This document shows, piece after piece, positions 1,284-46,998 of a DNA stretch of 64,000 nt. The stretch lies in IMG/VR virus record IMGVR_UViG_3300027983_002388. The stretch is one strand, 5' to 3'. Numbering within the stretch: position 1 is the first letter of the stretch; each line of letters begins with the position of its first letter. A model generated the notes under the pieces. That model was not told the origin of the DNA, ran no database searches, and saw only the letters and a program-made list of their open reading frames with translations. Origin of the DNA: a virus (taxonomy: Duplodnaviria > Caudoviricetes). A program made the position numbers and the translations under genes.

Positions 1284-2034
1284 AGTAAATTACAAATATC
1301 ACGAACGAATCGAAGGCGATTACAACAAGGAGGAAACCAAGTCCTTCAAGAAGAAAGTCGGCGATCCATTCGAGGATGTTTCATTAGAGAAGTTGGCTGG
1401 TGCTGTTATGGCCCAGCTTGCTCGACGTGACGTTTGGATTGTCGATGTGGAAGTCTTTGAGTTGTCTAAGAAGCCAGTGAGCTTCAAAGAGGCCAAAGGC
1501 GGGATCATCTTGAAAAACAAGAAGTTCAATTTTGATGGTGGCGGTGAAGACGCATCTACCATCATTGTTCAGGACATGATCCAAGCACCACCGCCAGTTC
1601 AATTGCCTCATCAATATGTACAGCTTGCCAATAATGGTCAGCATATGAATATTCAGGGGCAGGCAGCAAACCCCTCTAGGGGAGTGATGCCGCACGAACA
1701 GGGGCAACCTCGTCGCCCCATAGACTGGATGGTATTCTCGCCGGAGCTTCCTCAGATGGCGGAAGTGAAGCAGAAGAACCTCCGATTCACTCCCGAAAAA
1801 AAATATCCAGTGTTCGAGAAGCGAGAAGGCGTTGGTGGGGAAGTGTTTGTGATGATCGACGATACCGGACGGGAACAACTGGTTTCCGACAAATATTTTG
1901 TCCCCGGAAACGTCCAGTTGTTGGCCGATAGAGAGCTTGGTTTCTCTCAAAACCAACAAGAGCGAGAAGGCGGCAAATTATATTGGGGTGGTGCAAACCA
2001 AGAACCCAATATGCCAGAAATCAGACGCCGATAA
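1273..2034 (+). CDS. hypothetical protein
   Basis: 253-aa ORF overlapping the upstream stop and followed by a terminator. Confidence 0.7.
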   Translation: MGYEVNYKYHERIEGDYNKEETKSFKKKVGDPFEDVSLEKLAGAVMAQLARRDVWIVDVEVFELSKKPVSFKEAKGGIILKNKKFNFDGGGEDASTIIVQDMIQAPPPVQLPHQYVQLANNGQHMNIQGQAANPSRGVMPHEQGQPRRPIDWMVFSPELPQMAEVKQKNLRFTPEKKYPVFEKREGVGGEVFVMIDDTGREQLVSDKYFVPGNVQLLADRELGFSQNQQEREGGKLYWGGANQEPNMPEIRRR

Positions 2035-2042
2035 ACAAAAAT

Positions 2043-2069
2043 AAAAGCCCGGAGCAATCCGGGCTTTTT
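2043..2069. terminator. intrinsic terminator, possibly bidirectional
   Basis: AAAAGCCCGGA-GCAA-TCCGGGCTTTT perfect stem with flanking A and T tracts. Confidence 0.8.
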
Positions 2070-2122
2070 CTATTTATCGAACTCCATTATCCTCGTATAC
2101 TTCAAATACCTCGGAGGAAAAT

Positions 2123-2632
2123 ATGGCTAATCAAAAGCAAAAAGAAAAGAAGAAGAAGAATCGTGAACGAATTGCCAAGGTACGGGTCATGTATCGACGT
2201 GAAGTCTTGCGCAAAGAACGTAAGGTCGAAAAAGAAGAACAGCGTAAGTTTGAAGAAGCTCAAACAATTATGCACGGCAAACTGATGCCTGTTATCAGCG
2301 ATCCAGCATTGCTTGCCCAGCGAGAAGCCGCTCATGCTAAAGCCGTTTCAGACAAGCTGAAACAAAATCTTCAGATATTGGAGGCGCTTGAGCAGGAATA
2401 CGAGGCTGAACAAGCTACTCGTGCTGCGATGAATGACAAGCTCGAATCCGAAGGGCATAAGACAATGCGTGAAAAAATGGACGCATTGCACCAGAAGGCT
2501 TTGCACATGACTGGCAAGGCCGAAGCATTGGCTCAAGCGGAGGAAGACTATGCTGCACAGCATACTACATTAGAAGAATCTGCTGCACATCAAAATATTG
2601 AAGAAGAAATTGTTGTAGAGCCGATTATTTAG
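2123..2632 (+). CDS. hypothetical coiled-coil protein
   Basis: GGAGG SD; K/E-rich helical 169-aa ORF. Confidence 0.7.
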   Translation: MANQKQKEKKKKNRERIAKVRVMYRREVLRKERKVEKEEQRKFEEAQTIMHGKLMPVISDPALLAQREAAHAKAVSDKLKQNLQILEALEQEYEAEQATRAAMNDKLESEGHKTMREKMDALHQKALHMTGKAEALAQAEEDYAAQHTTLEESAAHQNIEEEIVVEPII

Positions 2633-2779
2633 AAATCTTTTCAGCAAACATAAAAAAAAAACTAAAGCTATTGAGTCTTCCGCCGATATAGCTTACAACA
2701 TCACTCAACGAACGACGAAGACTGTTAACTGTAACTTTCCAAGACGTTCACAACTATCAAAACGACTAAGGAGCTAACT

Positions 2780-3775
2780 GTGGCAACTGAATTTGAAGGA
2801 CTTGATTTATCGGAGATGCAACACGAGTACGAGCGGGTCAATGCCGAGCCGGGCGCTTTCGGCGGCGATGACTTCCTCGAAAAGTTCGTGCGTCTTCCAG
2901 AGCGTGACGGATATACGATCATGCGTATTCTGCCCCGTAAAAAGGGTGGCGGTAAGCATTATTGTGCAACCCGTGTTCACACGCTTTCTAACCCTACCAC
3001 CAAGAAGAAGAGAACCTATCACTGCCCGAAGGTTCTTGTGAAAACGGACAAGGGTGATCGTTGGCAGGGCGAGTGCATCATCTGTAAGTATTACAGTGAT
3101 CTCTGGCAGAAGTCCGAGAACCTGAGCGGCAAGGCTCAAGAAGACTTGCAGAATCAGGCACGGGCCATCAAGCCGGTCGAACGATACTACTACAACGTGA
3201 TCGTTCGTTCTGATAAAGACTTCAAGACTGGTGAAGTCAAGAAGAATGTCGGACCCAAGATTTACTCTTGCGGTAAGACAGTTCACGCCAAGATCATGCG
3301 GGCTATTGTTGGCGATAAGACCGCTGGCGAAGCAGGTCTTGGTGACATCACTCATCCGATGACTGGTCGTGACTTCCGAGTTGTGAAAAAGGTCGTCAAG
3401 GGTGGTGGCGGTGCTGAATATCCAAACTACGATAACTCGAAGTTTGAAGACGTGGCTCCCGCTGGTTCGCTGGATGAATTGTCAACTTGGATTGAAAACC
3501 TTCATGACGTTCACGCACTTCGGGCGTTGAAGAGTGAAGACGAATTGAAGCACGCTCTCCGTGTCCACTTGGGCATGGTTAAAGAGGGCGAGTCTCAAGA
3601 CGACGACTTGAACGAGTTCCGTAACGCTGGTCACACGGCATCTGCCCCTTCGACCGCATCGGAGTCTGTTCGTGAAGAATTGACCGTTAGCAGCAGCCCC
3701 GCCGCTTCTGAAAGCAAGGGTGGAGAAGAAATTCTCGCTGACGACGATTTCATGAAAGAACTCGAAGGTATGTAA
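2780..3775 (+). CDS. single-stranded DNA-binding protein, T4 gp32-like
   Basis: MRILP, YHCP...CIIC zinc site, YYYNVIV, GRDF, YDNSKF and acidic tail ADDDFMKELEGM; AAGGAG SD before GTG. Confidence 0.85.
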   Translation: MATEFEGLDLSEMQHEYERVNAEPGAFGGDDFLEKFVRLPERDGYTIMRILPRKKGGGKHYCATRVHTLSNPTTKKKRTYHCPKVLVKTDKGDRWQGECIICKYYSDLWQKSENLSGKAQEDLQNQARAIKPVERYYYNVIVRSDKDFKTGEVKKNVGPKIYSCGKTVHAKIMRAIVGDKTAGEAGLGDITHPMTGRDFRVVKKVVKGGGGAEYPNYDNSKFEDVAPAGSLDELSTWIENLHDVHALRALKSEDELKHALRVHLGMVKEGESQDDDLNEFRNAGHTASAPSTASESVREELTVSSSPAASESKGGEEILADDDFMKELEGM

Positions 3776-3791
3776 CCTTCCGTTCCACTGG

Positions 3792-3826
3792 ACCATCCAG
3801 GGCGTAAAAACCCTGGATGGTTTTTT
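3792..3826 (+). terminator. intrinsic terminator
   Basis: ACCATCCAGGG-loop-CCCTGGATGGT followed by a T tract. Confidence 0.8.
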
Positions 3827-3842
3827 CTTGAGTTTTCAATTT

Positions 3843-3867
3843 TAAGAATAGTGCCTTCCACTGGCAC
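3843..3867. promoter_or_regulatory. conserved dyad motif, copy 1 (upstream of recA)
   Basis: TAAGAATAGTGCCTTCCACTGGCAC; matches 49949-49973 at 22 of 25 positions; GTGCC-N7-GGCAC inverted repeat. Confidence 0.6.
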
Positions 3868-3877
3868 AGAGGTTCAA

Positions 3878-5119
3878 ATGGCAAAGAAGAAAGCTGCTGC
3901 GAGCGGTGGTGGTGTTGACGATGATTTTTTCGAGACACTAGCCGAAGAAACAGGCGGTGATGTTCTCGATACAATCGACAGTGTGAAATATTTTGTCGAT
4001 ACCGGCTCACTCGCTATCAATTATATTTGTTCTGGTCAGTTCATTACAGGAGGCATCCCTGGTGGCAAACTGACAGAAATTTACGGTCCCAATTCATCTT
4101 CCAAGTCATTGCTTGGTGCGAACATATTGTTTGGCACACAACGAGCGAAGGGCATTGCGGTTTTGATGGACTGTGAGAACTCTGCAAATAAAGAGTTCAT
4201 TCAACAAGCCTCTCACTGTAACCTCAAGCGTATTGTGCGTCATACTCCACAATCGTTAGAACAGGTTTTCACCAAAATGTACAAGGTGATTGAGAAGGCT
4301 CGTGAAAAGATTCCGATGGAAGTTCCCATCGTGATTGTTTACGATTCAATTGGTGTGTCGCCCTCTGAGCGTGAGTTGAGGGAAGTGGCATTGCCAGAAG
4401 AGTATACTGCTGCTGACTTCAAGCGAATTGTTGGTGGGCATGAACAGCCGGGCGAACGTGCTAAGATTTGTTCTCGTGAGTTCCGCAAACTGAACACCGT
4501 GATGGAGAAGAACAACGCTACGGTTGTCATCCTGAACCAGACTCGTGCCAAGATCGGCGGCTATGCCCCTATGGGACAGCAGGCGTTAACCACGGCTGGT
4601 GGCGGCAACGCACTTCCTTTCTATGCTTCCTGTCGTCTTGAAACGAAGACGCAGATGAAGATCGAAAAGAAGATCACAGCCAAGAAGAAAAAGATTCTCG
4701 GCATCAATGTGAAGCTGAAGAATGTCAAGAACAAGACTCACCGGCCCTTTGTCGAGTCGGAGAACATTCAGTTGTTGTTCGACAAAGGCATCAACCCCCT
4801 CAGCGGTCTGCTAAGTTGTTTGCTGGATGCAGAACGAATTGAGATCAAAGGCGCTGGAAACTTTGTAGTCAAAGAGCCTTGGGCCGGTGGGTCTGAAATC
4901 AAGTTTAAGGCCAGCCTGGAACGCAATGACCTTCCTGCTGAAATCTTGATGCAATGTCCAGGTTTGATCGACGCCATTTCAGCGGAACAGATCAAGGATT
5001 ACCTGGAGCCATTTCAAGAGTCTATCAATTTCCGACCTGAAGACAACGCCGACATTGAATTGAACGATGTATTGAGCGATGATGACGACGAGGATATTGA
5101 TGGGGAACTGGAAGGTTAA
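3878..5119 (+). CDS. recA: RecA/UvsX recombinase
   Basis: VDTGSLAIN, GIPGGKLTEIYGPNSSSKS (Walker A), IVYDS (Walker B), VILNQ, GGNALPFYASCRL; ATG at 3878 after AGAGG. Confidence 0.9.
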   Translation: MAKKKAAASGGGVDDDFFETLAEETGGDVLDTIDSVKYFVDTGSLAINYICSGQFITGGIPGGKLTEIYGPNSSSKSLLGANILFGTQRAKGIAVLMDCENSANKEFIQQASHCNLKRIVRHTPQSLEQVFTKMYKVIEKAREKIPMEVPIVIVYDSIGVSPSERELREVALPEEYTAADFKRIVGGHEQPGERAKICSREFRKLNTVMEKNNATVVILNQTRAKIGGYAPMGQQALTTAGGGNALPFYASCRLETKTQMKIEKKITAKKKKILGINVKLKNVKNKTHRPFVESENIQLLFDKGINPLSGLLSCLLDAERIEIKGAGNFVVKEPWAGGSEIKFKASLERNDLPAEILMQCPGLIDAISAEQIKDYLEPFQESINFRPEDNADIELNDVLSDDDDEDIDGELEG

Positions 5120-6168
5120 GATTCGATAAGAGCCGCCGTAAACGGGCCGGTTTTAAGCTGGTGATGTCGGTGATTGTAGATTGTGACATCATTTGATCCA
5201 CTGGTAGCTTCAAAAACTATCAGTGGATAATTTTGCGCCATGTCTTCCAAATAAAAAGTCAATTTGCCATCACTGGTCGCAGACCATAGGCCGATTGACT
5301 TTTTATGATTGTTGTGAATGAATATTTCTTCAATGATATTATTTGGACTAAGAGTTATCCACTTTTTATGGTCTGGACAAGACCAAATTAGAGACATATC
5401 TTTGTAAGTTGATTCTTGTTCTGGAGTCATAGACTCCAGCCAGTTCATTACGCAAGGGTTTTTATCTCTAGCGACCCAATGGATGTGATTGAAGTGTCCG
5501 TGAAGTTCTGAAAATTTAGTAAGCTCTGGACGCACAGTAAGAAACTTGACAGTTGTTGGATGGATTTTTTCCATGCGAGCGCAGAAGCACAATCCGTGAT
5601 CCCCATATCCTTCAGGTATTTGTTTTCTTAATTTGAAATACTGTTTAGCTTTTTCATTGTTTAGAATTCGTTTCATTGCCGCATTGCTTGTCACGGACAT
5701 CTCGTATTCGTGTGGCGGTGTGTCTTCAGGAAAACGATACCAATGATTAAACCCTAATTTTTCCAGCATATGTCTTTCGACAGGTTGGACATCCCAATTT
5801 AATTCGCCAGTAAGATGATATTCTCTTTCGTGGTCAAAGAACAACTCAAGGTTTTTCATTAGTCCACTAATGTCATTCATGCTGTCTTCATCGACCCGAT
5901 AGTACCATTTAGCTGTATCAGGCTTTGCTATTGCGTCGTAGTAATGGTGGATTCTTTGGGCGACGTGTTTGTAAGGTGTGAGGACAATTTCTACATCGAC
6001 TCCATCTGGCCAACCACCTTCAAACACTTTTACGTCATTATTATGGGCAGCAGCCAAAACGAGTTTGACTTTGTAATTGCCAATATTTCTGATTCCCCAT
6101 TTCTTGAAATCCACAAATCGTTGAACCAATTCGCTTTCAGCAGGAACGAGCATTTCGATATCGTACAT
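5116..6168 (-). CDS. putative glycosyltransferase (GT-A, Fringe/GT31-like)
   Basis: WYYRVDEDS DxD-like motif and downstream GDHGLCFC. Confidence 0.4.
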   Translation of the reverse strand: MYDIEMLVPAESELVQRFVDFKKWGIRNIGNYKVKLVLAAAHNNDVKVFEGGWPDGVDVEIVLTPYKHVAQRIHHYYDAIAKPDTAKWYYRVDEDSMNDISGLMKNLELFFDHEREYHLTGELNWDVQPVERHMLEKLGFNHWYRFPEDTPPHEYEMSVTSNAAMKRILNNEKAKQYFKLRKQIPEGYGDHGLCFCARMEKIHPTTVKFLTVRPELTKFSELHGHFNHIHWVARDKNPCVMNWLESMTPEQESTYKDMSLIWSCPDHKKWITLSPNNIIEEIFIHNNHKKSIGLWSATSDGKLTFYLEDMAQNYPLIVFEATSGSNDVTIYNHRHHQLKTGPFTAALIES

Positions 6169-12976: not shown

Positions 12977-13365
12977 AATTTCACATCAAGAAGAATGCCC
13001 ACTTTGAGGCTCGTATATACATTGGCAATCGTGTCAAGTATAACGGGCCTCAATTTTCTTTTGCCGAGCTTAGAGAAGCCATTGGATATTTCCAATCAAA
13101 CAATGGAATTGAGGCGTCCAATCCCGTTCGTATAACCCCCACAACATTTGTTTGGGAAAAGTACGATGAAGAGGGATGGGAAATCGCTGTAATTGATTAC
13201 CCAAGGGTCAGCAAGCCGCATAGTGTTTTGCGTGAGTTTGCATACAACTTGGCAGTTCATTTGTTTGAGAGGTTTGAACAGAACCGAATGTCTATTGTTT
13301 TTCCCGACGAGATAGTTATGCTGGAGGCCGATGACGCAGAAGAAAACAAGTACAACCAAAAGTAA
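12973..13365 (+). CDS. hypothetical protein
   Basis: 130-aa ORF with an ATGA overlap. Confidence 0.6.
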   Translation: MKFHIKKNAHFEARIYIGNRVKYNGPQFSFAELREAIGYFQSNNGIEASNPVRITPTTFVWEKYDEEGWEIAVIDYPRVSKPHSVLREFAYNLAVHLFERFEQNRMSIVFPDEIVMLEADDAEENKYNQK

Positions 13366-16300
13366 TCGCAAGGAGAAAAAAGTGCCTGTAGTAATCAAAG
13401 CTGAGGATCAGCCTGTTGTTGTAGCTACATCTGATTATCCTTACGCCAAATGGAAGTTTGAGACGTTCAATCCGGTTCAAAGTCGGATTATGGATTTTTA
13501 TGACAAGGATGTAAACGGTCTTATCGCCGCTATGACTTCAGCAGGCAAGACAGTCGTAGCTGAAATGTTTCTTGCGCAAGAAATTCGTAAACGTGGTGGC
13601 AAGGGCATGTTCCTTGCTCCTTTGCGTGCATTGGCTCGTGAGAAAATCACCGATTGGAAAAACGAGAATTATCACTTCGCCGACCAGAAAATTTCTATCT
13701 GCACAGGTGATTATAGGCTCACAAAAGAGCGTGCCAAAGAATTGAATGATGCCAATCTCATCATCATGACTTCGGAAATGTTAAATCACCGCAGTCGCAA
13801 TCATAAGGCCGAACAAAATAATTGGCTTCTTGATGTTGGCACGTTAATTATTGATGAATGTTTGTCTCCAAATGCAATAATTGAAACAGATCAAGGTCCA
13901 ATTTCTATTGGAGACATCATTGACAAAAATCTGGATGTTAAAGTTGCATCCATGAATCACTCAACCAAACAAATTGTATTCAAAAAAATAGTTGCTCGTC
14001 AGAAAAAGTTGTTAAAAAGAAGATGGCACACCATATATTATGACGGTGGGCATATTTCTGCGACATCAAATCATTTGGTGTGGTGTGAAAATCGTGGTTA
14101 TATTCCCTCTAAAGACATTCAAGAGGGAGATGTTATTTATGTACGAGGAATTAACGAAGAGAGAAAAACAAGTAATATTGGGAACTTTACTGGGAGACGG
14201 TTCGATAGCTCGACTTCCGCACGGAAAGTCAGCAAGATTGAGGGTTCAACAGTGTTCGGCTCAAAAGGCTTTAGTCGAATGGAAGTACAACGAGTTGAAG
14301 CGATTGGTTGGCACCCCTCCACAAATCAAACCGAACCAAGGGTACGGAAAGGAAGTGTGCAGATTCAACACATTGTCAAGCAAAATGTTGTTGGCAATAC
14401 ATTCGATGTGTTATCCACGAGGGAAGAAAATAGTAAATTCTCAGTGGTTGGACGAGATCACCGATCCGGTGGCATTGGCGGTGTGGTACATGGACGACGG
14501 AAGCCAGGGTCCAAGTATGATGGCAATTCACACCGAGGGCTTTCCCAAATCAGAAGTGGAATTGTTAGCGCATTGGTTGGAAACGAAATGGTCGGTGGCT
14601 TGCGAAGCCTATCCGACAAAACAATATTGGCAACTCAGATTTCCAGCGAAGGGTCGGGATCGTTTTCAAGAACTGGTTCGTCACGAAATAATTTCAGACA
14701 TGAATTACAAGGTGCTGCCAAAAATGGAGCAGATATTTTGTTCGATGTGTGGTCAGAAATTCATCGCAGATCGCCGCAGTCTTCATCAAGTCAGGAAGGT
14801 CATGCTTTGTGGGGCCAAGGAGTGTCGGTTGAATTGGGACAGGATGTACAGCCGGACGGAGACATGGATTCAGAGGAATCTTGGTGTTGCGACTTAGAAG
14901 TTGAATCTGATTGTTTTGAAGATTGCAATTTTTTTGCAGATGGAGTTCTTGTCCATAATAGTCACTTGTTGACTGTTCCAGGTCGTGGAGATCACCTGGA
15001 AGTTGGACTCATGAAGTTCACAGAGATCAATCCCAAGGCTCGTCTCGTGTTGCTTTCAGCAACGATGCCTAATGTAGAAGAGATTGCCGACTGGATTAGT
15101 TATTCTTTGACCAAGCGTGAAACTTTCATGTTGCGGTCCAAGTATCGACCAGTGCCTTTGACTCTTCACTATGAGTCTTATTACGACGTAGGCAGATACG
15201 ATCAAGTCGAAGAAGAGAAGGTCAATAAAGCCCTTGAAATTATTGAATGGTATCCAGACGACAAGTTCCTTGTCTTCGCCCATACAAAGCGTACTGGCGA
15301 ATTGATGAAGCAAAATTTGCGATCATTGGGCATTGAAGCTCAATTTCACAATGCTGATTTGCAAGCTGATGAGCGTGCTAAGGTGGAAGATCGTTTCAAA
15401 ACTGATCCTAAGCTACGGGTCATTGTGGCTACATCGACTTTGGCATGGGGCTTAAACCTTCCTGCTCGACGTGTGATTATTTTGGGCGTCAATCGAGGAA
15501 TTGGCGAGGTTGAAACTCACGATATTCTTCAGATGGTCGGTCGATCTGGTCGGCTGGGAATTGATCCGATGGGTGATGCGTACATCCTCGTTCCTGAAAG
15601 TGAAGAGGCAAAATATCGTCAGAAATTCAGCAAGCCGAATCGTATTGAATCCCAGCTTTTAGAAAAAGTTGGTGACAAATACAAGGTGTTAGCTTTCCAT
15701 CTTGTTAGTGAAATTCATCACGGCACTGTGTCAACAACCGATGATGTTCATGCTTGGTATAAGCGGTCGTTGGCTTATTTCCAAAACAAGGCTCTGGATG
15801 AAACTGTTGTAGACCAGACTTTAGACTTACTGCGGAAATGCAGTGCGGTTTGGAAAGAAGATGCTGTTGAAGGTGAGACGGATGAAAAATGGATTTGCCG
15901 ACCTATTGGGAAAGTTTCCAGCATGTTTTACTTCAGTCCATTTGATGTCTCGGACTTGTATTTTAACTTCAAGAATTTATTCCAAGACAATAAAGAGGAC
16001 GACGATTACTTCGTGTCAACGGCTCTGGGAAATATTGATGGTCAGAGAATGAATATAGTTTCTCGTATTGAGAAAGAAGAGATGAGTCTTTATGCCGCAA
16101 AGGTGCGGACCTTGATGCCAGGGAAGTTCTTCAATGATGCCTCTTTGAAGGCTAGTTTTTGCTACTTCAATTTGTTAAATGGCGTGAACAGCCAAGCCTG
16201 TGCCACAACGCAAAGGAATCTTCAGTTCGATTTCAATCGGCTGTCACAGGTTCTTCAGTCGCTCGATACATTTGGCGGCAATTGGCAACGTGAAAGTTAC

Positions 16301-16546
16301 TTCAAGATTCTTGAGGGGCGTATTACCAATGGGGTTCCAGTTCACTTAGTTGATCTTTGTCGTTTGGCAAACATTGGCAAAGCACGAGCTACGAAGCTCT
16401 ATGAAGCTGGATTTAAGACTGTTGAATCGGTTGCTGATATGGACTTTGAGAACTTCAAGAAGATTGTCAACAGTACGGGTAAATCCATGAAGGTAGACGC
16501 AGCTAAGGAAGTGTTTGAATCTGCCAAGGTGTTCGCTTTGCTTTAA
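13331..16546 (+). CDS. Ski2/Hel308-like SF2 DExH helicase precursor containing an intein
   Basis: AMTSAGKT (motif I), APLRALA, DE/SH split by the intein, LSAT, ATSTLAWGLNLPA, QMVGRSGR and C-terminal HhH (LANIGKARATKL). Confidence 0.9.
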   Translation: MTQKKTSTTKSNRKEKKVPVVIKAEDQPVVVATSDYPYAKWKFETFNPVQSRIMDFYDKDVNGLIAAMTSAGKTVVAEMFLAQEIRKRGGKGMFLAPLRALAREKITDWKNENYHFADQKISICTGDYRLTKERAKELNDANLIIMTSEMLNHRSRNHKAEQNNWLLDVGTLIIDECLSPNAIIETDQGPISIGDIIDKNLDVKVASMNHSTKQIVFKKIVARQKKLLKRRWHTIYYDGGHISATSNHLVWCENRGYIPSKDIQEGDVIYVRGINEERKTSNIGNFTGRRFDSSTSARKVSKIEGSTVFGSKGFSRMEVQRVEAIGWHPSTNQTEPRVRKGSVQIQHIVKQNVVGNTFDVLSTREENSKFSVVGRDHRSGGIGGVVHGRRKPGSKYDGNSHRGLSQIRSGIVSALVGNEMVGGLRSLSDKTILATQISSEGSGSFSRTGSSRNNFRHELQGAAKNGADILFDVWSEIHRRSPQSSSSQEGHALWGQGVSVELGQDVQPDGDMDSEESWCCDLEVESDCFEDCNFFADGVLVHNSHLLTVPGRGDHLEVGLMKFTEINPKARLVLLSATMPNVEEIADWISYSLTKRETFMLRSKYRPVPLTLHYESYYDVGRYDQVEEEKVNKALEIIEWYPDDKFLVFAHTKRTGELMKQNLRSLGIEAQFHNADLQADERAKVEDRFKTDPKLRVIVATSTLAWGLNLPARRVIILGVNRGIGEVETHDILQMVGRSGRLGIDPMGDAYILVPESEEAKYRQKFSKPNRIESQLLEKVGDKYKVLAFHLVSEIHHGTVSTTDDVHAWYKRSLAYFQNKALDETVVDQTLDLLRKCSAVWKEDAVEGETDEKWICRPIGKVSSMFYFSPFDVSDLYFNFKNLFQDNKEDDDYFVSTALGNIDGQRMNIVSRIEKEEMSLYAAKVRTLMPGKFFNDASLKASFCYFNLLNGVNSQACATTQRNLQFDFNRLSQVLQSLDTFGGNWQRESYFKILEGRITNGVPVHLVDLCRLANIGKARATKLYEAGFKTVESVADMDFENFKKIVNSTGKSMKVDAAKEVFESAKVFALL
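13859..14959 (+). mobile_element. intein in helicase motif II (367 aa)
   Basis: Starts CLSPNAII after IIDE; block B ATSNHLVW; ends NFFADGVLVHN before Ser; splicing restores DESH. Confidence 0.9.
14139..14897 (+). CDS. LAGLIDADG homing endonuclease in the +1 frame inside the helicase intein
   Basis: ILGTLLGDGS and ALAVWYMDDGS motifs; C-terminal CxxC...C...C; SD GAGGGAG at 14123-14129 before ATG 14139. Confidence 0.85.
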   Translation: MYEELTKREKQVILGTLLGDGSIARLPHGKSARLRVQQCSAQKALVEWKYNELKRLVGTPPQIKPNQGYGKEVCRFNTLSSKMLLAIHSMCYPRGKKIVNSQWLDEITDPVALAVWYMDDGSQGPSMMAIHTEGFPKSEVELLAHWLETKWSVACEAYPTKQYWQLRFPAKGRDRFQELVRHEIISDMNYKVLPKMEQIFCSMCGQKFIADRRSLHQVRKVMLCGAKECRLNWDRMYSRTETWIQRNLGVAT

Positions 16547-33798: not shown

Positions 33799-36393
33799 AT
33801 GACGCTAGAAATTTGCGGATTTGAACATTTACACCTTCATACGGATTTCAGCACCCTCGATGGCTACGGCATGGTTGAGGAATATGCGACTCGTGCGCCA
33901 CTCATCAATCAAAAGTTTTTGACCATCTCAGATCACGGCATGTTGGGGGCCATCCCTCGTCAAATCAAAGCCTGTGACAAGATGAATGACAAAAAGGGAA
34001 AAGATACCCTATCTCCCATCTTCGCCTGTGAATTGTACGTCAACAGGCTTCAGCCCGAATCCAACGGTCTGGGTGACATGCAGAAGTTCATGGCTGATCT
34101 AAATGAAGATGAACAAAAGGAATGCCGTGCAGGATCGCATCTTTTGGCTATTGCCTACAACGAAATAGGCTATAAGAATCTGGTCCGTCTATCATCCTGG
34201 GCGTGGACCAAGGGATTCTATCGTCATCCTCGTGTCAACTACGAACAGCTTCAGAAGTACAAGGAAGGACTGTTCTTCACGTCTTGTTGCTACAACAGTG
34301 AAGTTGGACGGGCTTTTGACCAACACGGTGAAGACGCCGCTTTCGCTATGATCGAGCGATATATTGAGATGTTCGGCAAGGAACACTACTTGCTGGAAAT
34401 CATGTTGCTCGATTTTGAAAAACAAAAACCATATGACGCCTTCATTATCAAGGCTAAAGAAAAGTATGGTTTGAAATTGATCCTCACCAATGACTGTTTA
34501 GTCGATGGAACTTTAATTTGGACACATTTAGGTTTTCAACTTATTGAAAACTTAAATGTTGGAGACATGGTTCTTACACATAATAATAGATATCGTCCTA
34601 TTGAAGTTAAAGTCAGTCGTAAACTAAATCATGATGAAAGAGTTTTTGAAGTCAAAGCAACTGCTGGCACTTTTTCTTTTCAATCAACTGGAAATCACAA
34701 AATTTATGTAAAACAAGGGGTCGATTTTAATTGGATTAAAACATCGAATTTAAAAAAAGGCGATTGTTTGGTTTATCCTGATTTTTCAAAATGTTCATTT
34801 TTTTCCAATCAAGATTTAGATTACATTGATCTTAGTGAATTCATCGAAGATGAAGATTTGTATTCTGAAGTAACATATTCTAATAGACATAATTTGCGAT
34901 GTGGCTTGCGTGAGAAGGACGGATATTATTTATCCCAAAGAGGATTTAGCGGCAATTCCACAGTTAAAATCCCGAAGTTATTTCCTGTAGATAAAGAATT
35001 TTGTCGAGTATTAGGATGGTACATTGCTGAAGGTTGGAGTGACACAAATTCGTACCAAGTTGGTTTTGCTCTTTCTATTCATGAACAAGATGTTGCTGAT
35101 TTTTTAATTGCTTATTTTTCCAAATTTGGCATCAAAGTGAAGCAATATTCTGTTTCTGAAAATGGGATTGCCATTAGATTTTCTAGCAAGGTATTCAATA
35201 GGGTTTTATCTAAAATATGTGGCAAAAAGGCTCTTAACAAACATTTGCCTTATATTAGTGGAACTTGGATTGGTAAATTCAGTGAAAGTCAATTCAAGCA
35301 AATTATAGCTTGTCACCAGTTTGGTGATGGAAGTTATTTGAATGGAGTTTTTGCTTTTCACAGCACAAGCAAGAAATTGATTTTTGAGATAGCTTCTGTG
35401 TTAAACGCAATGGGATTTCCGTCAATTCCATCGGTTGATAAGAAAAAAAATGTTAATTGGAATCAATGTTGGCATTTGAATTATTCTGGCGACGCCGGGA
35501 AAAAGCTAAGCAATTTTCTTTGTGGTGTATCACAGGATACAGGCAATTCTTCTTTGTGGACTTACGAGAATGAACATTGGTTGATTAAAATTCAAGAGGT
35601 CAATGAAATTGTTTACCAAGGAAATGTTCATGATTTTCAAGTTAAAGAAGATCATTCATTCACGGCAAACATGGCTGTAGTTTCTAATTGTCACTACTGC
35701 CAAGCAGAAGACAGTCATTTTCAGCGGCTTATGTTGATGGTTCAAACGGGACGTACTCTGGAAGAGATCAAGAGTGCTATTGCCCAGGATCAGATGCAAG
35801 ACTTCTTTGAGCTTCAGGACGCCAACCTTTGGATGAAGTCTGAAGAAGACCTGAATGCCAAGTGGGAGAAAGACTATAAGGATATTGTGCCTTATGAGCT
35901 TTTCTGTGAAGCCAAGCGAACGACTGTCGAAATCTGCAATAAAGCCAAGGGTGTTCAGCTTGATCGCTCGCTTAAATTGCCAGTCATTCCAGATGCCGAT
36001 GAAACTCTCAAAGAACTCGTCATGCGTGGCTTCAAGTGGCGTGGTTTGCCACAAACCAGAGAATATACAGATCGCATCAAAGAAGAATACAGTCTCATTA
36101 CCCGCAAGGGCTTCTCCAGTTACTTCTTGATTCAAAAGATGATGACAGATGAAGCACGACGGGTGTGTGTAGAGCTTCTGGGGTTTGGTGATGGTTCACA
36201 AGCTGTCGGTCCAGGTCGAGGCTCGGCGGTGGGCGCATTGACGTGTTATTGTTTGGGCATCACGAATGTAGACCCTATCTATGAAGGGCTGTTGTTCAGT
36301 CGATTCATGAGCGAAGCTCGTGGTGGTCGAAGTATTGTTCTTGAGTTCAGAAACATGGACCCGCTCCCTCCAGAGGATGCGTTTGCAGCTTAA
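33799..36393 (+). CDS. dnaE: DNA polymerase III alpha, N-terminal part (PHP domain to GPGRGS/FSRF) with intein
   Basis: HLHLHTDFSTLDG, ISDHG, ACELY, TND/CHY, KGFSSYFL, GPGRGSA and LLFSRF; stops before PDID. Confidence 0.9.
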   Translation: MTLEICGFEHLHLHTDFSTLDGYGMVEEYATRAPLINQKFLTISDHGMLGAIPRQIKACDKMNDKKGKDTLSPIFACELYVNRLQPESNGLGDMQKFMADLNEDEQKECRAGSHLLAIAYNEIGYKNLVRLSSWAWTKGFYRHPRVNYEQLQKYKEGLFFTSCCYNSEVGRAFDQHGEDAAFAMIERYIEMFGKEHYLLEIMLLDFEKQKPYDAFIIKAKEKYGLKLILTNDCLVDGTLIWTHLGFQLIENLNVGDMVLTHNNRYRPIEVKVSRKLNHDERVFEVKATAGTFSFQSTGNHKIYVKQGVDFNWIKTSNLKKGDCLVYPDFSKCSFFSNQDLDYIDLSEFIEDEDLYSEVTYSNRHNLRCGLREKDGYYLSQRGFSGNSTVKIPKLFPVDKEFCRVLGWYIAEGWSDTNSYQVGFALSIHEQDVADFLIAYFSKFGIKVKQYSVSENGIAIRFSSKVFNRVLSKICGKKALNKHLPYISGTWIGKFSESQFKQIIACHQFGDGSYLNGVFAFHSTSKKLIFEIASVLNAMGFPSIPSVDKKKNVNWNQCWHLNYSGDAGKKLSNFLCGVSQDTGNSSLWTYENEHWLIKIQEVNEIVYQGNVHDFQVKEDHSFTANMAVVSNCHYCQAEDSHFQRLMLMVQTGRTLEEIKSAIAQDQMQDFFELQDANLWMKSEEDLNAKWEKDYKDIVPYELFCEAKRTTVEICNKAKGVQLDRSLKLPVIPDADETLKELVMRGFKWRGLPQTREYTDRIKEEYSLITRKGFSSYFLIQKMMTDEARRVCVELLGFGDGSQAVGPGRGSAVGALTCYCLGITNVDPIYEGLLFSRFMSEARGGRSIVLEFRNMDPLPPEDAFAA
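34495..35688 (+). mobile_element. intein with in-frame LAGLIDADG endonuclease (398 aa)
   Basis: CLVDGTLI start after TND; STGNH block B; LGWYIAEGW and HQFGDGS motifs; ends HSFTANMAVVSN before Cys; visibly more AT-rich than its flanks. Confidence 0.9.
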
Positions 36394-40215: not shown

Positions 40216-42303
40216 ATGCCAAATACGATAAGAACCGAAGCTGAACTGTTAGCCCTGTTTATTGACAATAATCAGGGTCTAATTAACGCACAAGACATGC
40301 GTGACTTCGTGGTTTCTTCTCGTGTTGGACAAAACTATCCAGGACCACGAGGCCATCAAGGATCGCCTGGAACAGTTGGTGGTCAAGGACCGCAAGGTCG
40401 AATTGGACCACAAGGCGCTCAAGGCGAAGGATCGACAGTTCAAGGGCCGACAGGAGTTCAAGGGCCGACAGGAGTTCAGGGACATCAAGGAGTTCAAGGC
40501 GCAGGTTTTCAGGGAGTTGTTGGCGAACAAGGTCCACAAGGACTAGCAGGAGTTCAAGGAGTTCAAGGAAATCAAGGAGTTCAAGGCGCAGGTTTTCAGG
40601 GAGTTGTTGGCGAACAAGGTCCACAAGGACTAGCAGGAGTTCAAGGAGTTCAAGGCGCAGGTTTTCAGGGAGTTGTTGGCGAACAAGGTCCACAAGGACT
40701 AGCAGGAGTTCAAGGAGTTCAAGGAAATCAAGGGTTCATTGGTTTTCAAGGACTGGCGGGCGTTGATGGGAATCAAGGAAGCCAAGGACTTACTGGCTCT
40801 CAAGGTGATGTTGGTTTTCAAGGACTGGCGGGCATTGATGGAAACCAAGGAAACCAAGGACTTACTGGCTCTCAAGGTGATGTTGGTTTTCAAGGACTGG
40901 CGGGCATTGATGGAAACCAAGGAAACCAAGGACTTACTGGCTCTCAAGGCGATGTTGGTTCTCAAGGACTGGCGGGCATTGATGGAAACCAAGGAAACCA
41001 AGGAAACCAAGGACTTACTGGCTCTCAAGGCGATGTTGGTTTTCAAGGACTGGCGGGCATTGATGGAAACCAAGGAAACCAAGGAAACCAAGGACTTACT
41101 GGCTCTCAAGGTGATGTTGGTTTTCAAGGACTGGCGGGCATTGATGGAAACCAAGGACTTACCGGCTTTCAAGGCGATGTTGGTTTTCAAGGACTGGCGG
41201 GCATTGATGGAAACCAAGGACTTACCGGCTTTCAAGGCGATGTTGGTTTTCAAGGACTGGCGGGCGTTGATGGGAATCAAGGAAACCAAGGACTTACCGG
41301 CTTTCAAGGACTGGCGGGCATTGATGGAAACCAAGGAAACCAAGGACTTACCGGCTTTCAAGGCGATGTTGGTTTTCAGGGCAATCAAGGCGATGTTGGT
41401 TTTCAGGGCAATCAAGGCGATGTTGGTCTTCAGGGCAATCAAGGCGATGTTGGTCTTCAGGGCAATCAAGGCGATGTTGGTCTTCAGGGCAATCAAGGTT
41501 TTCAAGGCAGTGATGCTTCCGTTTCTTATACAAACGCTGCGACCACCCCTTCTACGATTGGTGGCATCCCTTCAGGATCAACATTTAACTCTCGAACTAT
41601 GCAACAAATGTGGGATTCTCTCTTGTATCCATATCAATCTCCTGCTTTTTCTTCATTTACGATGTCTGGTCAAACCACCAGTGTAGAAGTCGGCGTCACT
41701 ATATCAGGGACTAAAACATTTACATGGGCAACAACTAATTCCAGCAATATAAACGTCAATACAATATTGATTTCAGATGTTACAAATAGTGTGACTTTGG
41801 TGTCTGGTTCAGCAAATGATGGAACGGAAGCAATTGCTTTGCCTACGGCCATTCAAAAGACGAGTCAGGCATCTCATCAATGGAGTATTAGAGGCACCAA
41901 CAGCAATTCAGTGAATTTCTTGGCGACATTCACTGTGTCATGGTTCTGGCAAAGATATTATGGACCAAGTACAAACACTACTCTCACCGAGGCTGATATA
42001 GAAGCCTTGACGAATAGTGGATTGGCAAGCGGATACAGTGGAACTTTTGCATATGCCGGAGGCGGTTATAAGTTCTTTTGTTTTCCCACTTCATTCGGCT
42101 CTCCAGCATCCTTTAAAGATGCGGCTACTAACTTAAATGTGGCTATGGCAAGTAGTTCAGATGATGCTTTTTTTTCAAATACAGCCAATAGTTTGTCTTA
42201 CGGTCTGGTATCTGTCACGAATGCTTTTAGTCAAACGACTAATTATCGTGTTTACCGTTCTAAGAACATTCTTGGCGGGGCCATCTCGATAATAGTGGCG
42301 TAA
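40216..42303 (+). CDS. collagen-like fibre protein
   Basis: Long G-X-Y tract (GDVGFQGLAGIDGNQ units) followed by a beta-rich C-terminal domain. Confidence 0.8.
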   Translation: MPNTIRTEAELLALFIDNNQGLINAQDMRDFVVSSRVGQNYPGPRGHQGSPGTVGGQGPQGRIGPQGAQGEGSTVQGPTGVQGPTGVQGHQGVQGAGFQGVVGEQGPQGLAGVQGVQGNQGVQGAGFQGVVGEQGPQGLAGVQGVQGAGFQGVVGEQGPQGLAGVQGVQGNQGFIGFQGLAGVDGNQGSQGLTGSQGDVGFQGLAGIDGNQGNQGLTGSQGDVGFQGLAGIDGNQGNQGLTGSQGDVGSQGLAGIDGNQGNQGNQGLTGSQGDVGFQGLAGIDGNQGNQGNQGLTGSQGDVGFQGLAGIDGNQGLTGFQGDVGFQGLAGIDGNQGLTGFQGDVGFQGLAGVDGNQGNQGLTGFQGLAGIDGNQGNQGLTGFQGDVGFQGNQGDVGFQGNQGDVGLQGNQGDVGLQGNQGDVGLQGNQGFQGSDASVSYTNAATTPSTIGGIPSGSTFNSRTMQQMWDSLLYPYQSPAFSSFTMSGQTTSVEVGVTISGTKTFTWATTNSSNINVNTILISDVTNSVTLVSGSANDGTEAIALPTAIQKTSQASHQWSIRGTNSNSVNFLATFTVSWFWQRYYGPSTNTTLTEADIEALTNSGLASGYSGTFAYAGGGYKFFCFPTSFGSPASFKDAATNLNVAMASSSDDAFFSNTANSLSYGLVSVTNAFSQTTNYRVYRSKNILGGAISIIVA

Positions 42304-42315
42304 GGATAAAATGTA

Positions 42316-42810
42316 ATGCCAGCGATTCCAGGCTCAGTAAGCGTAACGGGCATTTTAGCCCCAACAGATACGACTGACACATATGCTGTAACCGATCCGG
42401 GCTACGGTATTGATGGCTTACGTTCTGTTGCGGACCTAACTGCCCGAAATGCCATTCCTGATGATCGTCGCCGATTTGGCATGTTGGTGTTCACTCAATC
42501 CGATCAGATGTATTGGACGCTGAAAGTTGGACCCTGGGCAGGAACCAATGCCGACTGGACCGCACTTACGCTTTCTGCCAGTACAACAGTCGCCTATAGA
42601 CGAACATTTACAGATGTAGACTTATCGGCGGGCATTTTGTCAGTCACTCATAGTCTTAATCAAAAGTACGTCAGCGTAACAATTTACGACGATAATGATA
42701 AACAAATAATACCAAGCGAGGTATTTCTCCAAAATACAACACAGCTTCAGATTGATTTCACTGGATTTGGCACGATTTCAGGAACCTGGAATATTGTTGT
42801 GATTGGTTGA
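42316..42810 (+). CDS. fibre-associated protein with the shared C-terminal module, no collagen
   Basis: SVADLTARNAI region plus FT...L....THSL...IYD....IP...IDFTG....GTW module. Confidence 0.65.
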   Translation: MPAIPGSVSVTGILAPTDTTDTYAVTDPGYGIDGLRSVADLTARNAIPDDRRRFGMLVFTQSDQMYWTLKVGPWAGTNADWTALTLSASTTVAYRRTFTDVDLSAGILSVTHSLNQKYVSVTIYDDNDKQIIPSEVFLQNTTQLQIDFTGFGTISGTWNIVVIG

Positions 42811-42860
42811 TGAATACAATTTTGAATTTGTGCTTTTTGAACAGTCAAGTAGTACATACG

Positions 42861-42898
42861 ACTACACAACTACACAACTACACACAACTACACACAAC
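42861..42898. repeat. intergenic tandem repeat
   Basis: ACTACACA x2, ACTACACACA x2, then AC. Confidence 0.85.
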
Positions 42899-42952
42899 CT
42901 ATGTAGATGTGAAAAGGGCGAGGCAGTCCGACAATGTTAAAGAGGTAATAGA

Positions 42953-44347
42953 ATGCCAAATATGATCCACGGTCTGATAGACGCAAAATACATTGAGTAC
43001 ATTCTCCACGGTTCGGACTCGACAGTTTACGACGTTGGCACTGGTGCATCCGTTGCGCTTAGTATTGCCAGCTATTCAGTCGGCGGCAATACTCTCAAAG
43101 ATGGTGTCTTCATTTATGTTGGCGGCTCTGGCGGTTCTTGCAATATCACCAGCATCACAGGTGCCGAAGCCGGTCAGTATTTGATTCTGAAAAGAGGAAC
43201 AAGCTCGACCAGAACAATTACGCTCAATGAATCCGGTGGCAGCATTAAGCTAAATGGCACAGCAACCACTTATGATCTGGCAGATGGACCAGCTTGTTTA
43301 TTATACAACGGTACAAATTGGACAGAAGTTTACAGAAAGTCCGGTTCTCAGGGACCACAGGGCAACCAGGGCAATCAAGGATCGCAAGGAAATCAGGGCA
43401 ATCAAGGAAATCAGGGAAATCAAGGAAATCAGGGAAATCAAGGCGTTCAAGGTCCACAAGGTCCGAATCCGGGTGAAGTTGGAGGAGGACAACAAGGATA
43501 CCAAGGGAATCAGGGTAATCAAGGAACACAGGGATTCCAAGGTAATCAGGGAAATCAAGGCAATCAAGGTCATCAAGGTTTTGCAGGAAATCAGGGCGTA
43601 CAAGGAACTCAAGGCGTACAAGGAAACCAGGGCGCACAAGGTCGTCAAGGCAACCAGGGGAACCAAGGTTTTGTAGGAAACCAGGGAAACCAAGGCGCAC
43701 AAGGAAACCAGGGCAATCAAGGAAATCAAGGTTTCGTTGGTAATCAGGGAGTACAGGGCGCACAAGGTCGTCAAGGCAACCAGGGGAACCAAGGTTTTGT
43801 AGGAAACCAAGGTTTTGTAGGAAACCAGGGAAATCAGGGCAACCAAGGTACTCAGGGTTTCCAAGGCTCACAAGGCAACCAGGGCAACCAAGGTACTCAA
43901 GGCTTACAAGGCAACCAAGGAAACCAAGGCAACCAAGGTACTCAAGGCTTCCAAGGCAACCAAGGAAACCAAGGCAACCAAGGAACGCAAGGTTTCCAAG
44001 GCAACCAAGGAAACCAGGGCAACCAAGGCAATATAGGTTTCCAAGGAAGTTCGCCACAGGGGCAACAAGGCAATCAGGGCAACCAAGGATCGCAGGGCAA
44101 CCAAGGGTTCGTCGGAGCGTTTTTATCGAAGGCGACTGGCACTTTTACGAGTGCAAACTTGACAGCAAACGTATTGACGATCACCCACAATTTATCCATA
44201 TCTGTTCCTTTGATTATTCAGATTTATGACAACGGCACAAATATGGTAATTCCTACTGAATACACATATGTCAACAGCAACTCGTGTACAGTTGATTTTA
44301 CCGGCTTTACGGTAACTGGCACTTGGTCTTGGATTTTGGTGTACTAA
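42953..44347 (+). CDS. collagen-like fibre protein (GNQ repeats)
   Basis: Beta-rich N-domain, (QGN) G-X-Y tract and shared C-terminal module. Confidence 0.8.
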   Translation: MPNMIHGLIDAKYIEYILHGSDSTVYDVGTGASVALSIASYSVGGNTLKDGVFIYVGGSGGSCNITSITGAEAGQYLILKRGTSSTRTITLNESGGSIKLNGTATTYDLADGPACLLYNGTNWTEVYRKSGSQGPQGNQGNQGSQGNQGNQGNQGNQGNQGNQGVQGPQGPNPGEVGGGQQGYQGNQGNQGTQGFQGNQGNQGNQGHQGFAGNQGVQGTQGVQGNQGAQGRQGNQGNQGFVGNQGNQGAQGNQGNQGNQGFVGNQGVQGAQGRQGNQGNQGFVGNQGFVGNQGNQGNQGTQGFQGSQGNQGNQGTQGLQGNQGNQGNQGTQGFQGNQGNQGNQGTQGFQGNQGNQGNQGNIGFQGSSPQGQQGNQGNQGSQGNQGFVGAFLSKATGTFTSANLTANVLTITHNLSISVPLIIQIYDNGTNMVIPTEYTYVNSNSCTVDFTGFTVTGTWSWILVY

Positions 44348-44362
44348 GGAGCAAGATAAACA

Positions 44363-45676
44363 ATGAAAACAGGTAAAATAACATCGGCTACGTTTGTCAA
44401 CCCTTCTTGGGGTACAACAACGATTGCCAGCAATATCATTAGCTCCTTGGTTGGATCGCACTATACCGTTACGCCTAGTGGTGGTGTCGGGACATCAGAT
44501 ACACTTACAACGATCAACTATACTTCTCTCCAAGATGGGCAGTTATTGGTTCTTCGAGCTAACGGCACATCATCTTCGATTACTTTGACATCGGCAGGCA
44601 ATATTGCCACATTGTCTCCGATAGTCATGACTGAATTTGTTAGTGTTTATTTGATTTACAATAGCACAGCAACCAAATGGTATGTTGCAGGTCGTCAAGG
44701 TTATCAAGGAAATCAAGGCAATCAGGGCAATCAAGGATCACAAGGAAATCAGGGCAATCAAGGATCACAAGGAAATCAGGGCAATCAAGGAAATCAAGGT
44801 TTTCAAGGTTTTCAGGGCGATAGAGGTTTCCAAGGAAACCAGGGTTTAGTGGGAAATCAGGGCGTACAAGGAACTCAAGGAGCACAAGGAAATCAGGGCA
44901 ACCAAGGTGTACAAGGAAATCAAGGCAACCAAGGTTTTGTAGGAAACCAAGGAAATCAAGGTCGCCAGGGAAATCAGGGCAACCAAGGAACACAAGGTTT
45001 CCAAGGCAACCAAGGTTTCGTTGGAAATCAAGGCAACCAGGGATCACAAGGTAATCAGGGCGTTCAAGGATCACAAGGCAACCAAGGTTTCCAGGGAAAT
45101 CAGGGCAACCAAGGTACGCAAGGCTTCCAAGGCTCACAAGGTTTCCAGGGAAACCAAGGCAATCAAGGCTTTGCAGGTAATCAAGGTGTACAAGGAACTC
45201 AGGGCAATCAAGGATTTGTCGGAAATCAGGGCGTACAAGGCACTCAAGGCGCACAAGGCTTTGCAGGCAATCAAGGTGTACAAGGAACTCAGGGCAATCA
45301 AGGATTTGTCGGAAATCAGGGCGTACAAGGCACACAGGGCGCACAAGGAAACCAGGGCGCACAAGGAACTCAAGGATTCCAAGGCAACCTGGGAAATCAG
45401 GGAAATCAAGGCTTTGTTGGAAATCAGGGTAATCAAGGCGCACAGGGTACTGCGATGACTTCAACTTCCTTTACGTTTACCAATGCAAGTCTGTCGGTAG
45501 GAGTTTACACCGCTAATCACAACTCTGGTCGTCAGTATTGGAGCGTAGAAGTGTTCGACAACACCAGCAAGAGAATTTTGCCGGACTTTATTACTTGCAC
45601 AAATACAAACAATTTGGCAATTGATTTGACGACCTACGGAGTAATCACAGGTACATGGACAGCGAGGTTATCATAA
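44363..45676 (+). CDS. collagen-like fibre protein (GNQ repeats)
   Basis: Same three-part architecture; AAGGAG SD. Confidence 0.8.
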   Translation: MKTGKITSATFVNPSWGTTTIASNIISSLVGSHYTVTPSGGVGTSDTLTTINYTSLQDGQLLVLRANGTSSSITLTSAGNIATLSPIVMTEFVSVYLIYNSTATKWYVAGRQGYQGNQGNQGNQGSQGNQGNQGSQGNQGNQGNQGFQGFQGDRGFQGNQGLVGNQGVQGTQGAQGNQGNQGVQGNQGNQGFVGNQGNQGRQGNQGNQGTQGFQGNQGFVGNQGNQGSQGNQGVQGSQGNQGFQGNQGNQGTQGFQGSQGFQGNQGNQGFAGNQGVQGTQGNQGFVGNQGVQGTQGAQGFAGNQGVQGTQGNQGFVGNQGVQGTQGAQGNQGAQGTQGFQGNLGNQGNQGFVGNQGNQGAQGTAMTSTSFTFTNASLSVGVYTANHNSGRQYWSVEVFDNTSKRILPDFITCTNTNNLAIDLTTYGVITGTWTARLS

Positions 45677-45677
45677 T

Positions 45678-46997: not shown

Positions 46998-46998
46998 A

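Follow-up and report, generated by a model that had tools for sequence, protein, structure and literature searches.

A probable mobile intein in motif II of a phage Hel308-like helicase, with a predicted LAGLIDADG endonuclease gene overprinted in the +1 frame of its linker

Introduction

Canonical bifunctional inteins carry their endonuclease in the intein's own reading frame. The subject of this paper is an insertion in a Hel308/Hjm-like superfamily 2 (SF2) helicase gene of a virus of the Caudoviricetes (IMG/VR record IMGVR_UViG_3300027983_002388), of which a stretch of 64,000 nucleotides, hereafter the window, was analysed. The insertion has the features of an intein, and a homing endonuclease gene (HEG) appears to be encoded within it in a frame other than that of the intein. 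An initial annotation of the DNA had described this arrangement and could not tell whether it had been reported; the architecture has in fact already been described by Gorbalenya (1998), Gosselin et al. (2025) and Phillips et al. (2026).

Gorbalenya (1998), as cited in the later papers, grouped the Synechocystis DnaX intein, whose nuclease lies in an alternate frame, with the 'non-canonical inteins'. Phillips, DeSimone and Gogarten (bioRxiv 10.64898/2026.09.14.751524) describe cyanobacterial dnaX inteins with a disordered linker and a LAGLIDADG endonuclease overprinted in the +2 frame, together with Shine-Dalgarno (SD) motifs and a frame-dependent ratio of nonsynonymous to synonymous substitution (dN/dS); neither free-standing or in-frame relatives of the nuclease nor phage-borne copies could be found in that study. 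The dnaX case was verified here in Leptolyngbya PCC 6406, where the dnaX open reading frame (ORF; 1821..5225) is open and contains the homing endonuclease (HE) ORF (2501..3496). Gosselin, Arsenault and Gogarten (bioRxiv 10.1101/2025.01.02.630785) describe inteins of actinophages whose nucleases are LAGLIDADG or VSR-like on the antisense strand, or EndoVII-like in sense frame 3. The phages are GC-rich, and the genes that host the inteins encode terminase, polymerase, capsid and thymidylate synthase. The authors propose that these inteins originated when free-standing HEGs invaded inteins, with evidence of continued transfer. What is new here is the host (a phage Hel308-like helicase, at motif II), the +1 frame, the free-standing and in-frame relatives of the nuclease and a cultured intein-plus/minus system.

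Results

The intein and its host gene

The element at positions 13859-14959 is probably a mobile, non-canonical intein in motif II (DE/SH, the slash marking the point of insertion) of a phage Hel308-like helicase, with a HEG overprinted in the +1 frame on its linker. The host gene and the parts of the intein are as follows.

13331..16546, + strand: Hel308/Hjm-like SF2 helicase gene, 1071 codons, stop-free through the intein; matches Pfam DEAD, Helicase_C and HHH_5, and phrog_6819
13331..13858, + strand: N-extein, ending in motif II (..LIIDE), aligned with intein-less alleles
13859..14959, + strand: intein, class 1 (Cys1 ... His-Asn, Ser+1), 367 codons, assigned from its catalytic residues and a profile match to 7cfv
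13859..14146, + strand: N-terminal splicing (HINT) half, residues 1-96; block A at 13859-13897, block B (ATSNHLVW) at 14060-14083
14147..14869, + strand: helicase-frame linker, residues 97-337; open, otherwise without constraint, predicted to be disordered
14870..14959, + strand: C-terminal splicing half; block F (DLEVE...NFFADG) at 14891-14944, block G (VLVHN) at 14945-14959
14960..16546, + strand: C-extein, beginning at the Ser of motif II (DE/SH)

The helicase frame was found to be stop-free from 13331 to 16546, with Cys1 at 13859, His-Asn at 14954-14959 and Ser thereafter, in agreement with the initial annotation; phrog_6819 is a PHROG family annotated 'Holliday junction branch migration helicase'. 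Motif II is split between DE and SH by the insertion of 367 codons, while intein-less orthologues (approximately 675 aa, and most of the family) read IIDE/SHLL. These include alleles 90-92% identical to the exteins of the window, and the insertion is absent in 57 sampled orthologues. A megablast search of GenBank phages with the helicase gene gave no match.

Judged by its residues and profile matches, the insertion at 13859-14959 is an intein. It has C1, T69, H72, D345, H366, N367 and Ser+1; T69, H72, D345, H366 and N367 are invariant in all seven relatives, themselves 28-51% identical overall, and Cys1 is present in 6/6 relatives that cover the position, the +1 residue being Ser or Cys. The best match of the intein profile among solved structures was the Spirulina (Spl) DnaX mini-intein 7cfv (E 6.5e-9), to which the N and C halves match separately, and the NrdJ-1 intein was matched as well. 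Both splicing halves are beta-rich in the predicted model, with a pLDDT (predicted local distance difference test) score of 52-87, and the N-terminal half is 60-84% identical among relatives. No in-frame endonuclease had been recognised at the outset, only a stretch rich in Ser, Gly and Arg in its place, and this was borne out by Pfam and by residue composition: the helicase frame of the intein has no endonuclease match in Pfam (its sole match being a weak one to Intein_splicing), and residues 97-337 contain 14.5% Ser, 13.3% Gly and 8.7% Arg.

Inteins are found at three sites in the same helicase family, namely GK/T, DE/SH and AWG/LNL, in an alignment of P0156, P0240, P0147, P0186, P0239, P0129 and P0149; those at GK/T have an in-frame LAGLIDADG_3, and those at AWG/LNL comprise both mini-inteins and full inteins. 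A further member, P0241 (1488 aa), appears to carry two inteins.

The overprinted endonuclease

Over the length of the helicase gene the +1 frame is interrupted by 40 stops, none of which falls between 14013 and 14895. The following features were assigned within this interval and at its end.

14123..14129, + strand: SD-like GAGGGAG, 9 nt before the HEG ATG; doubles as the intein codons E-G-D
14139..14897, + strand: HEG in the +1 frame, 252 aa; I-SceI-like two-motif LAGLIDADG core and C-terminal Cys4 cluster
14175..14204, + strand: LAGLIDADG motif 1 (ILGTLLGDGS), residues 13-22, with Asp20
14472..14504, + strand: LAGLIDADG motif 2 (ALAVWYMDDGS), residues 112-122, with Asp119/Asp120
14739..14825, + strand: Cys cluster CSMCG...LCGAKEC (CxxC...CxxxxC), residues 201-229, conserved in the window, L001 and L003
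14895-14897, + strand: HEG stop TAG, within the D-L-E codons of block F

The two-motif LAGLIDADG protein with a C-terminal Cys cluster that had been read from 14139-14897 was confirmed by a Pfam search, in which it matched PF03161 (LAGLIDADG_2) at 112 bits (cut-off 25; E 3.8e-32) over profile positions 1-164/168; it also matches phrog_11023. The overlap of GAGGGAG with the E-G-D codons of the intein, and that of the HEG stop with block F, can likewise be seen in the sequence as first described. The AlphaFold model of the HEG product has a pLDDT of 92.8 and the pseudo-dimeric alpha-beta-beta-alpha-beta-beta-alpha fold, and its top Foldseek matches were I-WcaI (6x1j; E 5e-15, template modelling (TM) scores 0.70/0.77) and I-SceI (1r7m; TM 0.69/0.78), while TM scores to the intein nucleases PI-PfuI and Tli VMA were only 0.45-0.49. 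Among 50 HEG homologues, W116, D119, D120 and G121 do not vary, and G19 and D20 reach at least 90% conservation. The HEG is thus predicted to encode a complete I-SceI-like LAGLIDADG homing endonuclease. Its Cys cluster is a probable zinc ribbon, and a Pfam scan of the cluster gave only marginal Zn-ribbon hints. Three close homologues of the HEG product (P0004-P0006, JGI) are labelled 'recombination protein RecA' by their source, a label probably carried over from intein-containing RecA entries.

Both reading frames are kept open among relatives

Six further distinct metagenomic loci with the same arrangement were identified in the same helicase family (L001, L003, L010, L011, L012 and L013; L002 and L017 are near-identical copies of L001), and both frames are open in 6/6 of them, with HEG identities to the window HEG of 47-77%. 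The expectation that homologues would keep both frames open was therefore upheld, with zero stops in the helicase frame. The window intein and those of the five full-length relatives share a spacing of exactly 93 codons + 1 nt from Cys1 to the HEG ATG, and in each of them the HEG stop falls within the codons of block F.

A stop can arise in the helicase frame only where a HEG codon ending in T precedes a codon starting with AA, AG or GA. None of the 66 such risk junctions in the window HEG has T (0/66), compared with 50/185 codons ending in T elsewhere. Given the HEG protein and the codon usage of the window, the probability that the helicase frame would be open is 1e-10 to 1.5e-12, which places the case against chance on firmer ground than the (61/64)^253 estimate given originally for a stop-free second frame. 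The number of risk junctions with a stop is 0/66 to 0/81 in L001, L003, L011, L012 and L013, and the probability of an open frame is 1e-12 to 1e-14 where it was computed (the window and L001-L003). By comparison, members of the same HEG family that are not overprinted have many stops in the corresponding frame: 26 and 36 in the free-standing L009 and L005, and 25 and 20 in the in-frame L004 and KLEP7. As the genome has a GC content of approximately 44%, the openness of the window's helicase frame is not a by-product of composition.

In the HEG frame the proportion of synonymous differences (pS) is approximately 0.75, that is saturated, and that of nonsynonymous differences (pN) is 0.18-0.31, whereas in the same comparison the linker has an amino-acid identity of 31-37% and an omega of 0.9-1.7. 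From these values, selection maintains the HEG protein, the splicing halves and, in the linker, mere openness. The frame-specific dN/dS and stop-avoidance comparison suggested by the initial annotation thus gave the outcome that dual coding predicts (purifying selection in the HEG frame, an unconstrained linker and 0/66 at the risk junctions), and a dual-coding intein with both frames held open by selection is supported by these alignments.

It had also been anticipated that standard gene calling would miss the nuclease, and only the helicase is called in the window, as it is in L011-L013 and in the GenBank record of Xanthomonas phage FoX3 (see below). The HEG alone is called, with the host gene truncated or uncalled, in L008 and in the Leptolyngbya dnaX gene. 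Since gene callers report only one of the two genes, such nucleases are under-annotated.

Two further loci are related to the window element. L008 (1594-2897; JGI 3300036985) has the same intein and nuclease with one stop in the helicase frame, at 2253-2255, after which a possible restart would give a 35-residue IntC-like piece; the C part of its helicase, which is truncated, ends after motif V, just before a UDG gene. This copy may be in decay, or it may represent a fractured form with a split intein. At L009 (1887-3505; Logan SRR22868752) the nuclease gene is free-standing, its product is 53% identical and its -1 frame contains 26 stops; the gene stands directly behind a UvrD-like ORF that ends in ..FDLVFL, just before the expected motif II, and may mark another insertion at a Walker-B site. 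A scan of genome contigs found only distant HEG relatives, at most 37% identical, in metagenome-assembled genomes, from which no host could be assigned, and a scan of metagenome contigs found nothing beyond further L001-type copies.

Distribution of the intein

In a tree of the exteins the six alleles with an intein are interspersed with 57 alleles that lack one, a distribution for which at least five gains or losses are forced by well-supported branches, and the allele nearest to that of the window is intein-less (92% identical). Between L001 and L011 the splicing halves are 84% and the HEGs 79% identical, the exteins only 65%. A divergent helicase contig from the same freshwater sample skips 1357 nt of the window (13605-14963), with 256 nt between, and is therefore 1101 nt shorter; as this is the exact length of the intein, an intein-less allele co-occurs with the intein-bearing phage. 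This sporadic and incongruent distribution is the pattern expected of a homing element.

A comparable arrangement was found in a cultured phage. The gp40 helicase of Xanthomonas phage FoX3, which belongs to another SF2 family (L006; MT161383.1 26902-29268), has an intein at DE/CHH, and the LAGLIDADG encoded in the +2 frame there has gone unannotated. The HEG frame is open at L006 2285-3085, where the helicase frame has 0 stops and the third frame 11, and the probability of an open frame is 6e-5. Phages FoX1, FoX2, FoX5, Murka and M29 have exteins 97-99.5% identical to those of FoX3, without the 942-nt intein, and together with FoX3 they provide a cultured plus/minus system for homing.

Production of the nuclease and proposed mechanism

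The ATG of the HEG is conserved in all relatives, and in L001-L003 and L013 the HEG frame has a stop 1-6 codons before it (two codons in L003). In every case an SD-like GGNGA, formed by the intein's Gly-Asp codons (GGN GAY), stands 9-10 nt upstream of the ATG. In the window it is a strong GAGGGAG, whereas among the relatives it takes the form GGAG three times and GGGGGA, GGTGA or GGCGA in the others; an SD-like core is found at 24/53 gene starts in the window (approximately 45%) against a background of 9%. The conserved ATG, the stops just upstream and the SD-like GGNGA make internal initiation at the nuclease's own ATG plausible, and we infer it as the most economical reading.

A mechanism can be proposed on this basis. 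Ribosomes in the helicase frame would make a precursor in which two class-1 HINT halves are joined by a disordered and freely varying linker of approximately 240 residues, and the intein would splice itself out, restoring the DESH motif. The nuclease would most likely be initiated separately at the ATG at 14139, behind the SD-like GGNGA formed by the Gly-Asp codons. In a mixed infection it would then cleave the IIDE/SHLL site of helicase alleles that lack the intein, and the intein and nuclease would be copied into the cut allele by repair.

Other inteins and alternate-frame ORFs in the window

Separate genes in the window encode two parts of DnaE (33799-36393 and 50005-53421), the N part with an intein of approximately 400 aa that has a weak in-frame LAGLIDADG_3 match (22 bits) and the C part with a mini-intein. 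As these accompany the helicase intein, a single genome holds canonical, mini and overprinted inteins. Collagen-repeat genes at 40216-48222 (Pfam Collagen, E 1e-40 to 1e-57) give alternate-frame ORFs of 270-315 codons on both strands; the other long alternate-frame ORFs in the window were considered as dual-coding genes and rejected, as they lie in these collagen-repeat genes, have no domains and are an effect of composition.

Alternative explanations

The HEG sits exactly where an in-frame endonuclease domain would, and some relatives in the same HEG family are encoded in-frame (L004 and KLEP7), so that a canonical LAGLIDADG intein displaced from its frame by two compensating sequencing or assembly indels has to be considered. 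This is extremely unlikely, because an accidentally shifted frame would carry some 20-36 stops, the number seen in the controls, while zero were found in 7 distinct sequences from independent samples; moreover, the HEG frame has an upstream stop and a conserved ATG. Near-identical sequence was found in the metagenomes of at least nine studies, with habitats that include freshwater, estuary, soil, glacier and microbial mat, and the contigs of four of those studies that cover the region differ by substitutions only, with no gaps, so the indels that the initial annotation had regarded as fatal to dual coding are absent from four independent assemblies. A helicase frame that is strictly stop-free over approximately 250 codons might signify that the linker is a functional domain and that two functional polypeptides are dually encoded. 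Such a linker is, however, only 26-54% identical among relatives, against 54-79% for the HEG, and has an omega of about 1; its model has a pLDDT of approximately 25 with no secondary structure, and it matches no Pfam or PHROG family, all of which makes a functional domain very improbable. Apart from its openness the linker sequence appears to be unconstrained and is predicted to be disordered, and the openness itself is explained by the need for reading to reach the C-terminal splicing half and the C-extein.

With the two frames accepted as real, the nuclease might be made by programmed ribosomal frameshifting, giving a fusion of N-extein, IntN and HEG or, with a second shift, a canonical bifunctional intein. 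Ribosomes that are already translating the helicase ORF pass over the HEG start and compete with internal initiation there, and the SD-like element is weak in some relatives. Frameshifting is nevertheless given little chance: the stops in the HEG frame, two codons before the ATG in L003 and 4-6 codons before it in L001, L002, L011 and L013, leave almost no room for a shift, every relative keeps the ATG, no slippery heptamer can be seen in TTATTTATG, and ribosomes would also have to shift back before the TAG in block F. About as improbable is that the HEG is a silent relic, the element now being a mini-intein with a long linker that is inherited vertically and has been lost repeatedly. The variation of the SD among relatives would fit this, as would the divergence of the sampled inteins (20-45%, with no recent transfer among them). 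Set against it, the ORF is intact in every full-length relative, down to 47% identity, the catalytic Asp and motif residues are invariant, synonymous sites are saturated at a pN of 0.18-0.31, and the similarities of intein and extein disagree; a relic would, besides, lose the HEG frame long before the helicase frame.

Several observations nonetheless weigh against a mobile intein with a separately translated nuclease, the explanation preferred here. The match to Pfam Intein_splicing is below the cut-off (24 vs 35.8 bits). The His of block F is not conserved, being absent in the window, L011, L012 and L013, and block F has a 4-residue insertion in the window (14906-14926) and in L011 (ESDCFEDC and ESDSFENS, compared with EDNHN in the others), so splicing efficiency may be reduced. 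The third base of the Gly codon in the six loci is A, T, A, C, G and A, and because of this variation a dedicated ribosome-binding site is not clearly selected. As the inteins differ by 20-45%, no sampled transfer is recent. The indel check was made on assembled contigs, and splicing, independent translation, cleavage and homing are all deduced from sequence.

Discussion

Origin and significance

In the GC-rich L010 the probability of an open helicase frame is 0.10, that is one in ten synonymous versions of the HEG, against 1e-12 to 1e-14 in low-GC members, and a naive HEG insertion in a genome with 44% GC would bring approximately 20-30 stops into the host frame. Speculatively, overprinting may arise where it is cheap and then be held by selection after transfer. 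A wider interpretation, which we consider possible though rather doubtful, is that the overprinted state is a recurring bridge between free-standing HEGs and bifunctional inteins, in which one lineage hops between Walker-B DE/xH sites and has a GC-rich origin with export to AT-richer phages. Its hosts may be unrelated P-loop NTPases (DnaX, Hel308-like helicases and other SF2 helicases), overprinting may have occurred at least twice (+1 and +2), and in AT-richer phages selection may hold approximately 70 codon junctions stop-free. If this were true, the free-standing L009, the overprinted loci, L008 with its single stop and the in-frame L004 would be snapshots of the path.

The locus bears on the old question of how homing nucleases came to be linked with splicing domains, and the base composition of the phage genome makes the selection for dual coding unmistakable.

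Comparison with known systems

The ShiLan insertion in actinophage methylases (Arsenault et al. 2025, PMC11855218) resembles the window element in having an alternate-frame nuclease within an insertion through which translation continues in the host frame. Unlike the window element, it has no splicing domain, stays in place as a loop of the host protein and encodes an HNH nuclease. Fractured genes with split inteins (Dassa et al. 2009, PMC2677866) share with the window a nuclease with its own start between splicing halves, in environmental phage-like DNA; their host gene, however, consists of two ORFs and relies on trans-splicing, whereas the host frame in the window is continuous and kept so by selection. 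The host stop after IntN that marks a split intein is absent from the window, a single linker stop being found in L008 only.

Inteins of the canonical bifunctional type (PI-SceI, PI-PfuI) have their nuclease between blocks B and F, as does the window. There it forms part of the intein polypeptide, while the window HEG would be a separate product with a fold nearer to I-SceI and I-WcaI. Two inteins with nucleases of the same HEG family encoded in-frame were found: L004, an SF2 helicase intein at the same DE/C site with a homologous HINT half (hhalign probability 97%) and a nuclease 34% identical, and the RNA-ligase intein of Pseudaeromonas phage KLEP7. The actinophage non-canonical inteins (Gosselin et al. 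2025) are, like that of the window, phage inteins with the endonuclease in a frame other than the intein's, but include no sense-strand LAGLIDADG in a helicase.

The dnaX intein is the closest in organisation. Like the window element it consists of HINT halves and a disordered linker with a LAGLIDADG overprinted on the same strand, SD-like motifs and frame-dependent selection, and it is inserted at a Walker-B/motif II type site, DE/(C or S)H. It differs in its host, dnaX, and in an HE frame of +2, as against a phage Hel308-like helicase and frame +1 in the window; the Cys-rich extension is N-terminal in the dnaX HE and C-terminal in the window HEG, and the probability of an open frame is 1.7e-6 for Leptolyngbya dnaX and 1e-12 for the window. 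Both halves of the system are homologous (7cfv for the intein, as given above, and 39% identity between the dnaX HE and the window HEG, E 2e-21), so the window element is a phage-helicase relative of the dnaX intein; since host gene and frame differ, it is a relative and not an orthologue. The present loci supply what the dnaX study lacked, namely copies carried by phages and nuclease relatives that are free-standing or in-frame, and the rare architecture of an intein with a separately encoded nuclease gains a second and well-populated home in the helicases of environmental phages.

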